Virus record (IMG/VR): IMGVR_UViG_2537561516_000008
Span: 1-10,995 of that record
DNA length: 10,995 bases
Strand: one strand, 5' to 3'
DNA from: a virus
Lineage: Duplodnaviria; Heunggongvirae; Uroviricota; Caudoviricetes
Positions 9,001-10,995 of the stretch are shown in pieces. The position numbers are program-made. Position 1 is the stretch's first letter; the number at the start of each line of letters is the position of its first letter.

Positions 9001-10995
9001 TTTGGCTCCTTTTTCTGATTGCTTGAGTTCTGCTTCAGTAATGGTAATTATGTAAGCGCCAGTTTCGTTAATAAAACCACCTTGCCCTGCGGTCAGTGTT
9101 GCTTCTTCGTTATAAGTAAAAATTACGTTGCTCATGCGGCGTTTTCCTTAATTTGATGAACATTATTGATGCCGTAGTAATCACAAACAGTGGCATCGAC
9201 GAAAGAGAGATCGTTATCAATCTCATTGGAATCAAACATTCCCATTGGGGATTTAACAGTGTCTGCACCGTTGTTTTTCGTGGTGAAAAAGAACTGGTCA
9301 TCGCGGGTAAGAGTGCGAAGAACTATAGTAAACATGCCTTCGACAGTGATTTTCTCGTCCAGCATTTTGCCGATAGTCTTCATTTTCACGCGCCCCATAG
9401 GGGTTTCTTCGGTGTGCGCAAGAAAATAGACTCTCAGGTCATCAGGCGCATCCTGTGCAGCCTTAATGACCTCCCATGCGTGGCGGCCTATCTCAGTAAA
9501 TTTATCAAACGATTTTTCTTCTGAGCGGCGCATAAACTCATTGCTCATCACATACTGGAAGTCATCAACAATAACGATTCTTTTTCCGTATTCGTGAGCA
9601 CGCTTAATTACAGCAACTATTACGTCCCATTTGTCAGTGGTAACTACGGTTCCTTTTTTTGCTCTGGCATCCCATGCAAGCCAGTTTTTTGATTTAAATG
9701 GTAGCGGCTTGCCTATTGGTTTTATAAGTATTGCTTCCTCTGGATTGATATTTCTCATGCTGGTTGATTTTCCGGTGCCAGACTCACCGAGTATTAATAT
9801 CGCAGTTCCCATAATTCACCTCAGAATGGTAATTCGGATGGGGAGGAAAGAAATTCGCGCTCATTCATGCGCTCTCTTTGTGCCTGCCATAAGCAAAGTT
9901 GTTTCTTTGATTTATCTCCCGCTTTACGCCAGTAACGAGCCTCAGCAATGTGATACTCTCTTTTTAATCGACTTAACTCTGGGGTTTTCGCCAGTTCTAC
10001 CGGAATCATTTTGACCTCCATTTTCTGTAGGCTTCTACGGCTTCACGAAACATCTTTTCATCGCCAATAAAAGTGGCGATAGTGAATTTAGTCTGGATAG
10101 CCATAAGTGTTTTATCCATTTTTGGGAACTCCTGGCTGATTAAGTACGTCGATGAGTCGCTTCCATCCGTCACGTAATTTACGGGTGATTCGTTCAAGTA
10201 AAGATTCGGAAGGGCAGCCAGCAACAGGCCACCCTGCAATGGCATATTGCATGGTGTGCTCCTTATTTATACATAACGAAAAACGCCTCGAGTGAAGCGT
10301 TATTGGTATGCATATAAAAAGGCCCTCACGCACTGGAGGGCAAAGAAGATTTCCAATAATCAGAACAAGTCGGCTCCTGTTTAGTTACGAGCGACATTGC
10401 TCCGTGTATTCACTCGTTGGAATGAATACACAGTGCTTATTCGTACTAATAAAATACCCAATTTTCTGTTTCTTGGTTGTGTCCAAAGTTATATTCAATA
10501 TCTGGTGTTGATGTATCAATATTTTTCATCCCATCAACAAGAGTTGATACAACAGCCAAATCTTGTTTTATTCTCATTAAATGGTATTTCTTCCGGCGCA
10601 ATAAACTTTCAATAGCAAGTTTCTTCGTTGGGAATGCAAAAGATCTTTCTGCATTTTTTGCTACTTTCTTAATTGCATATCTATTTCTCCTTTGTTTCCA
10701 TTCCTGTAACCACTGATTTGGTGCTGGTTTAAAATTAACAATCCAATGCGCAGGAACCAACCATGCATAATGCTCTGTCTGATGAAAAGCTATATATTGA
10801 AGTGCGAATATTTTTATCCCATCTTCTTCAACTGTCGCCTGGAATCTCCAGAAAACAGGCATTCCATCATGTTCAGTTTCTGATTCAGGAAAAGGTACGC
10901 TCCATGATTTTGTCATATCTCACCTCAAATAAGTGGTTTGCTGCCTAATTTCATTTTCTGGCGACCAACACAAGTCACACCCATTTCACTGCGTG

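Follow-up and report, generated by a model that had tools for sequence, protein, structure and literature searches.

What kind of gene lies just upstream of cIII in this phage, and is it the terminator-insulated orphan that it at first appears to be? The window considered here (the whole 10,995-nt stretch of viral DNA that was analysed) ends in a segment that the initial annotation read as an AT-rich 156-aa open reading frame (ORF) of no recognised family, insulated by terminators, probably expressed from its own promoter beyond the window edge, and a candidate for an exclusion or defence function. The segment belongs to a lambdoid early-left (pL) operon, of which it forms the promoter-proximal part, and its anatomy can be described with high confidence (Table 1): in the order of transcription, the gp45 gene is followed by PreS/LPR1 ending at tL2a, then by a second hairpin, the cIII thermosensor, cIII and kil. 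The best explanation of the ORF is that it is a pL-operon cassette whose product acts early in lytic development and is directed at the host. Taken as a whole, this explanation is about evenly balanced between holding and failing, while the part of it that makes the ORF product an early lytic accessory protein is probable.

Table 1. Features of the cIII-proximal segment, in the order of transcription.
Feature	Coordinates	Strand	Remarks
Leader common to HK97 and 933W	10917..10978	minus	No promoter or terminator predicted in the leader
Shine-Dalgarno sequence GAGGTGA (GAGGTG core 10921-10926)	10920..10926	minus	Read from the sequence; 3-4 nt 5' of the ATG
156-aa ORF, HK97 gp45 / 933W p19 family (PHROG 1636)	10446..10916	minus	ATG start; pI 9.1
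Homologue of the lambda ral-ea10 spacer, encoding PreS/LPR1	10312..10436	minus	96% identity over 125 nt to lambda 33923-34045
Inverted repeat, 12-bp RNA stem	10399..10436 (arms 10399-10415/10420-10436)	minus	5' part of the 125-nt element
Intrinsic-terminator hairpin GCCCTCCAGTGCGTGAGGGC with U tract, equivalent to lambda tL2a	10312..10341	minus	PreS 3' end
Second terminator-like hairpin AACGCTTCACTCGAGGCGTT with T tract	10273..10301	minus	cIII module; lambda ~33484-33512
Lambda cIII thermoregulator RNA (Rfam RF01804, Lambda_thermo)	10207..10265	minus	88.5 bits, threshold 50
cIII, 46 aa	10112..10252	minus	Mapped from the annotation of a 99.8%-identical locus
kil	10006..10119	minus	Mapped from the annotation of a 99.8%-identical locus

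The ORF was correctly located at the outset, as was the strong ribosome-binding site before it (the minus-strand sequence preceding the start reads GAGGTGAGAT-ATG). The view that it belongs to no recognised family has to be abandoned. The protein matches the PHROG 1636 profile along its full length (residues 1-156 of 156, E 2.7e-112) and is 99.4% identical to HK97 gp45 (NP_037731), 100% identical to ST933Wp19 of 933W (NP_049479), and 99.4-100% identical to vb_24B_11c of phi24B, orf57 of Stx2 phage 86 and an ORF of H-19B. As a feature it is already known: its sequence entered the databases with the HK97 and 933W genome papers, and the family to which it belongs is now catalogued. Every annotated copy is labelled hypothetical, and the copies in H-19B and in dozens of Stx1a and Stx2a phages are ORFs without annotation. 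Near-identical copies occur in 87 phage records, and near-identical DNA spanning the ORF is found in approximately 560 of 5426 complete E. coli genomes, or about one in ten. Full-length homologues with 55-99% identity are present throughout Enterobacterales, those with 55-85% identity being from Pectobacterium, Brenneria, Cronobacter, Rosenbergiella and metagenomic phages, and a profile search of 1.8 billion representatives returned 87 proteins, mostly of 130-160 aa and all devoid of Pfam domains. The ORF is a real gene under strong purifying selection, with a dN/dS of 0.05 against the HK97 copy and 0.19 against an 85%-identical homologue; two plant-pathogen copies of the gene give 0.07.

Family membership brings no assigned function with it. 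Searches of Pfam and NCBIfam with the protein gave no useful match (in Pfam none below E 0.1), no family recurred when 83 family members were run against Pfam with a cutoff of E 1, and sequence searches of the PDB, with the protein and with the profile, were equally without a useful match. Pfam homology to Ral, SieB or Ea10 was likewise absent from the ORF protein and did not recur among the 83 members. The sole match among the PADLOC models was Cas1_II (E 0.018, 12 bits), which is noise. A literature search found no paper addressing the function of the HK97 gp45 family, and the homology search proposed at the outset returned no well-characterised housekeeping phage protein.

The compositional difference that first drew attention to the segment persists upon calculation. 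The ORF has 35.2% GC, against 46.2% elsewhere in the window, and a GC3 of 25.5%, against 40-55% for the other genes of the window. It is the lowest-GC 471-nt stretch, only 0.5% of intervals of that length being as low and each of these overlapping the ORF. The low GC is limited to the ORF, the hairpin region having 43-45%. In several unrelated phage backgrounds (loci L022, L015, L024, L007 and L008) the homologue lies 5-10 GC points under its flanks; in Pseudomonas phages it is slightly under, and in a 73%-identical lambdoid copy (L023) it is not under at all. Because the GC deficit differs among backgrounds in this way, the AT bias is lineage-specific rather than a trait of the family.

The 9-bp inverted repeat and the two terminator-like hairpins reported between the ORF and cIII are all present. 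The inverted repeat has a perfect core (GTGTATTCA/TGAATACAC) and is placed just 3' of the ORF stop; on the minus strand the stem of the first hairpin runs from 10341 to 10322 and is followed by CTTTTTATAT, and that of the second from 10301 to 10282, followed by TTTCGTTATG. The two terminator-like hairpins on the minus strand compare with 0.7 +/- 1.0 in shuffled sequences, and RNA folding gives z = -3.9 for 10312-10445 and z = -4.3 for 10266-10312, with 0 of 200 shuffles as good. Their identity to lambda shows what these structures are: the inverted repeat and the first terminator make up the PreS locus with tL2a, and the second terminator is the hairpin of the cIII module. The idea that they insulate the ORF cannot stand, since they constitute the lambda ral-ea10 spacer and the cIII module and occur in phages without the ORF as well.

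According to a 2024 preprint, the lambda ral-ea10 spacer encodes LPR1, since renamed PreS, an Hfq-dependent sRNA of approximately 88 nt that is processed to approximately 68 nt and has the terminator tL2a as its 3' end. Its production is confined to the lytic cycle, and it raises dnaN translation, thereby aiding phage replication (bioRxiv 10.1101/2024.10.31.621285). PreS/LPR1 would occupy about 88 nt at approximately 10316-10403 in the window, and the 125-nt element, at 96% identity to its lambda counterpart, lies above the 92% taken as the minimum for PreS. It also has the GC-rich terminator hairpin and poly-U 3' end of PreS, within a pL operon; Rfam contains no PreS model. The window copy equals lambda across the stretch 5' of the terminator, which folds partly unpaired, and departs from it in the terminator loop, where 2 nt are inserted, and in the bases just past the stem. 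Downstream, positions 10101-10311 are 97% identical to lambda 33312-33522 and hold cIII, its leader and the second hairpin, which is probably one more terminator of the tL2 cluster that Luk and Szybalski described. The cIII protein has 46 aa here and 54 aa in lambda (annotated CDS 33299-33463). Both terminators would be read through by the phage antitermination system. For annotation, sequence comparison suggests that the apparent insulation consists of an sRNA gene and N-suppressible terminators, with accessory genes swapped between them.

Such swapping is visible when the window is aligned by BLAST with related loci, which reveals sharp mosaic junctions at 10311/10312, 10443/10446 and 10978. 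In 933W and lambda, ea10 separates the two hairpins, its insertion point being exactly 10311/10312, and in PA28 a P22 gp17-like gene is found at 10311/10316, essentially the same junction; both genes are absent at 10311/10312 from HK97 and from the window. Insertion between hairpins means that each inserted gene ends up with its own hairpin 3'. In Dewey, two extra small genes are found at 10443/10446, directly after the ORF stop. Given sharp junctions on either side, the ORF is a self-contained cassette, with the upstream gene's stop codon as one boundary and, as the other, its own stop codon or the hairpin of tL2a. The 125-nt PreS element is present in 2237 of the 5426 E. coli genomes, about three quarters of the 2237 being without the ORF, and the immediate 5' neighbour of the element is ral in at least 776 genomes and the ORF in at least 563. 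The ORF fills the place that ral holds in lambda, and the cIII-proximal accessory slot initially proposed is thus confirmed by the alternation of the two genes 5' of the same element.

On its other side, the block of homology with HK97 and 933W stops at 10978, the stop codon of N in HK97. The homologue comes immediately after N in HK97, 933W, phi24B, Dewey and the lambdoid contig with the 73%-identical copy; the order N - gp45 - cIII is found in HK97, 933W and phi24B, and cIII and kil are downstream in the window too. In HK97 and 933W, where no terminator separates them, gp45 would be co-transcribed with N. The closest relative of the window is the E. coli SJ2D prophage, 99.8% identical to positions 10101-10995, which has just past the window end a 147-aa gene of PHROG 13686, then a strong intrinsic terminator, and whose only good promoter is a pL-like site about 740 nt upstream. 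Immediate-early co-expression with N was considered as a general rule and dropped, as this relative has a terminator just upstream. On the coding strand of SJ2D no promoter-like site lies between the terminator and the ORF; a consensus scan of the 135-nt upstream spacer found no promoter, though a weak one could escape it, and a crude consensus scan of the minus strand at 9900-10995 found no sigma-70-like site, with the proviso that AT-rich DNA can hide weak promoters. Where a promoter belonging to the ORF had been expected, beyond the window edge, SJ2D has a terminator and another pL-operon gene. In the lineage of the window, expression probably needs read-through of the terminator just outside it, and the pL transcript would be the source of the protein, during infection or on induction. 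Between the repressor and the ORF (locus L004, 5761-6409), SJ2D has no recognisable N gene and a long structured-looking leader after the pL-like promoter; a search of this upstream DNA against Rfam gave no match.

Other parts of the window are also of note. Positions 8228-9812 (minus strand) encode a Sak4-like ATPase, an SSB and an Abc2 anti-RecBCD protein instead of lambda Exo, Bet and Gam, and SJ2D has the same recombination genes, annotated as an AAA family ATPase, a hypothetical protein and a phage anti-RecBCD protein. Positions 2621-3466 and 6302-7145, separated by 3.68 kb, are diverged direct repeats of one another (78-94% identity), and both contain a gene for an Ant-like anti-repressor (PHROG 377) on the minus strand, at 2648..3301 and 6329..6952. 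Just upstream of each Ant-like gene, on the same strand, is a match to the Rfam family sRNA-Xcc1 (RF02221), at 3313-3402 (65 bits) and 6993-7081 (69 bits).

The protein itself provides further evidence. An AlphaFold model built with close homologues alone reached a pLDDT of 59 and was discarded in favour of a run on the 83-sequence alignment, which gave a pLDDT of 95.9, driven by co-variation in the alignment, and a pTM of 0.83. The predicted structure consists of a long beta-hairpin (residues 19-46), a third strand (50-55), a fourth strand (83-86), two short helices and a 33-residue helix (98-130), with an ordered tail; the model is that of a soluble beta-sheet-plus-helix protein, and no membrane segment is predicted. 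It is a confidently predicted fold without a match among solved structures. The structural comparison suggested at the outset did yield look-alikes, although only among uncharacterised phage proteins: a Foldseek search of a viral predicted-structure library gave 12 at E < 1e-3, including proteins of Erwinia phage phiEa2809 (Ackermannviridae), of Achromobacter phage phiAxp-3 and Delftia phage RG-2014 (both Schitoviridae), and of Tenacibaculum, Cellulophaga and rhizobial phages. Schitoviridae and Ackermannviridae are strictly virulent, and the presence of the fold in these families therefore counts against a role in lysogenic conversion or exclusion. Conserved positions, in the numbering of this protein, are Y23-R24, G33, E46-T47, K87, R92-F-A-F, T97-K98, A101, R108-K109 and H115, with K87, R92 and K109 nearly invariant in the family. 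The protein is basic, with a net charge of +12 over residues 57-130, and the modelled position of this region on a beta-sheet-plus-long-helix fold suggests that the conserved basic surface may bind nucleic acid or an acidic host partner.

The location of the gene varies outside the lambdoid group. An early operon opens with the homologue, or has it in second place, in Salmonella phage NX263 and related contigs and in Vibrio phage PvVp04; in the Brenneria/Pectobacterium prophages and the Pseudomonas phages Medea1 and Skulduggery it closes the series of early genes, with xis-int or the lysis genes coming next. The Brenneria/Pectobacterium homologue (62-63% identical; L007 6001-8011, L008 6001-7922) has xis and int immediately downstream, where the prophage ends, and is not beside an N gene. 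The phage contexts compared have no constant neighbour of the homologue.

What, then, does the protein do? Early lytic function is the better-founded part of the answer: the protein would serve lytic development rather than the lysogen. Its single most likely function, put forward tentatively, is counter-defence or host takeover, which would make it a functional analogue of the ral cassette that it replaces. Lambdoid phages tend to hold analogous functions at the same map position, as with Red, Erf and Sak4 or Gam and Abc2. Counter-defence is rated likeliest because the ORF alternates with ral and because of this habit of keeping analogous functions in place; position and habit are the whole of its basis, and it is offered as a possibility by analogy. 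Against it, the protein is basic, unlike the classical acidic DNA-mimic anti-restriction proteins, and the position of the gene is not fixed among other phages. More doubtful still is the specific proposal that the HK97 gp45 family is a counter-defence or host-takeover factor of new fold, an alternative to Ral at the head of the pL operon whose conserved basic face acts on a host nucleic-acid-handling or immunity complex. If true, such a factor would be carried by most Shiga-toxin phages and would have relatives in virulent N4-like and Vi1-like phages.

Less likely than a counter-defence role, and on present evidence rather unlikely, is that the protein binds nucleic acid to regulate the early programme of the phage itself, at the level of transcription, RNA processing or translation, rather than being host-directed; it might act, for instance, on the pL transcript or on PreS biogenesis. 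Its pI and its strongly charged central region with conserved Lys and Arg residues would suit such a regulator, as would the placement of homologues at the first or second position of divergent early operons in the NX263-like and Vibrio phages, the head of a divergent early operon being the usual place of Cro-like regulators; in E. coli phages, moreover, the gene always adjoins N and PreS. However, no known DNA- or RNA-binding fold was detected for the ORF protein, its position differs in other phages, and it is dispensable for the lambdoid programme, as lambda and many relatives lack the gene and yet have PreS.

An improbable reading, ranking below both counter-defence and own-programme regulation, makes the ORF a moron: a prophage gene with expression of its own that provides the lysogen with superinfection exclusion or with defence against phages, in the manner of sieB or rexAB. 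The ORF is indeed a strong compositional outlier, many prophages have it, its slot is that of sieB and ral in lambda, and a terminator follows it. That terminator is PreS/tL2a, which occurs without the ORF, and consensus scanning predicts no promoter of its own; the lack of a PADLOC match, the soluble model with no predicted membrane segment, the fold relatives in strictly virulent families and the homologues that head early operons in other phage types all point the other way. The exclusion or defence candidate of the initial annotation is thus less likely than an early lytic protein. That the ORF is merely a chance frame encoding no protein has practically no chance of being correct and is already refuted by the pattern of conservation: AT-rich DNA does bear long chance ORFs on both strands, but these would not account for full-length homologues across Enterobacterales, a dN/dS of 0.05-0.19, 87 profile matches, a co-variation-driven pLDDT of 95.9 and a strong Shine-Dalgarno sequence.

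The ORF is found in most Shiga-toxin phages, among them the classic ones (933W, H-19B, phi24B and BP-4795), where it has been "hypothetical" since the first genome papers. To this the present analysis adds strong selection, a confident predicted fold without a match, relatives in virulent phages and alternation with ral upstream of PreS. Being widespread in Shiga-toxin phages and having such a fold, the protein is a reasonable experimental target. If it is indeed a counter-defence factor, this would have consequences for the host range of Stx phages and for their spread.

Comparison with named systems places the ORF most closely with HK97 gp45, 933W p19 and phi24B vb_24B_11c, which occupy the same place, after N and before the hairpin for which Juhala et al. 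gave the annotation of putative terminator upstream of cIII. The protein has no substantial difference from those of HK97 and 933W. The upstream gene does differ, with the PHROG 13686 gene and terminator seen in SJ2D replacing N. The downstream element resembles lambda PreS/LPR1 in its 96% identity and in its GC-rich hairpin with a U tail, and by sequence would be its counterpart; it differs in having gp45 rather than ral upstream and no ea10 downstream in the window. Like the morons of HK97 (e.g., gp15), as Juhala and Hendrix defined them, the ORF is a compositional outlier, patchily distributed among relatives, with a terminator on its 3' side; unlike them, it has no promoter of its own that a consensus scan could find, and its terminator does not travel with it, being common to phages without the gene. 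Lambda Ral, which alleviates restriction, is likewise the product of a small non-essential early gene of the pL operon, immediately 5' of PreS/tL2a. [quoted passage not shown]
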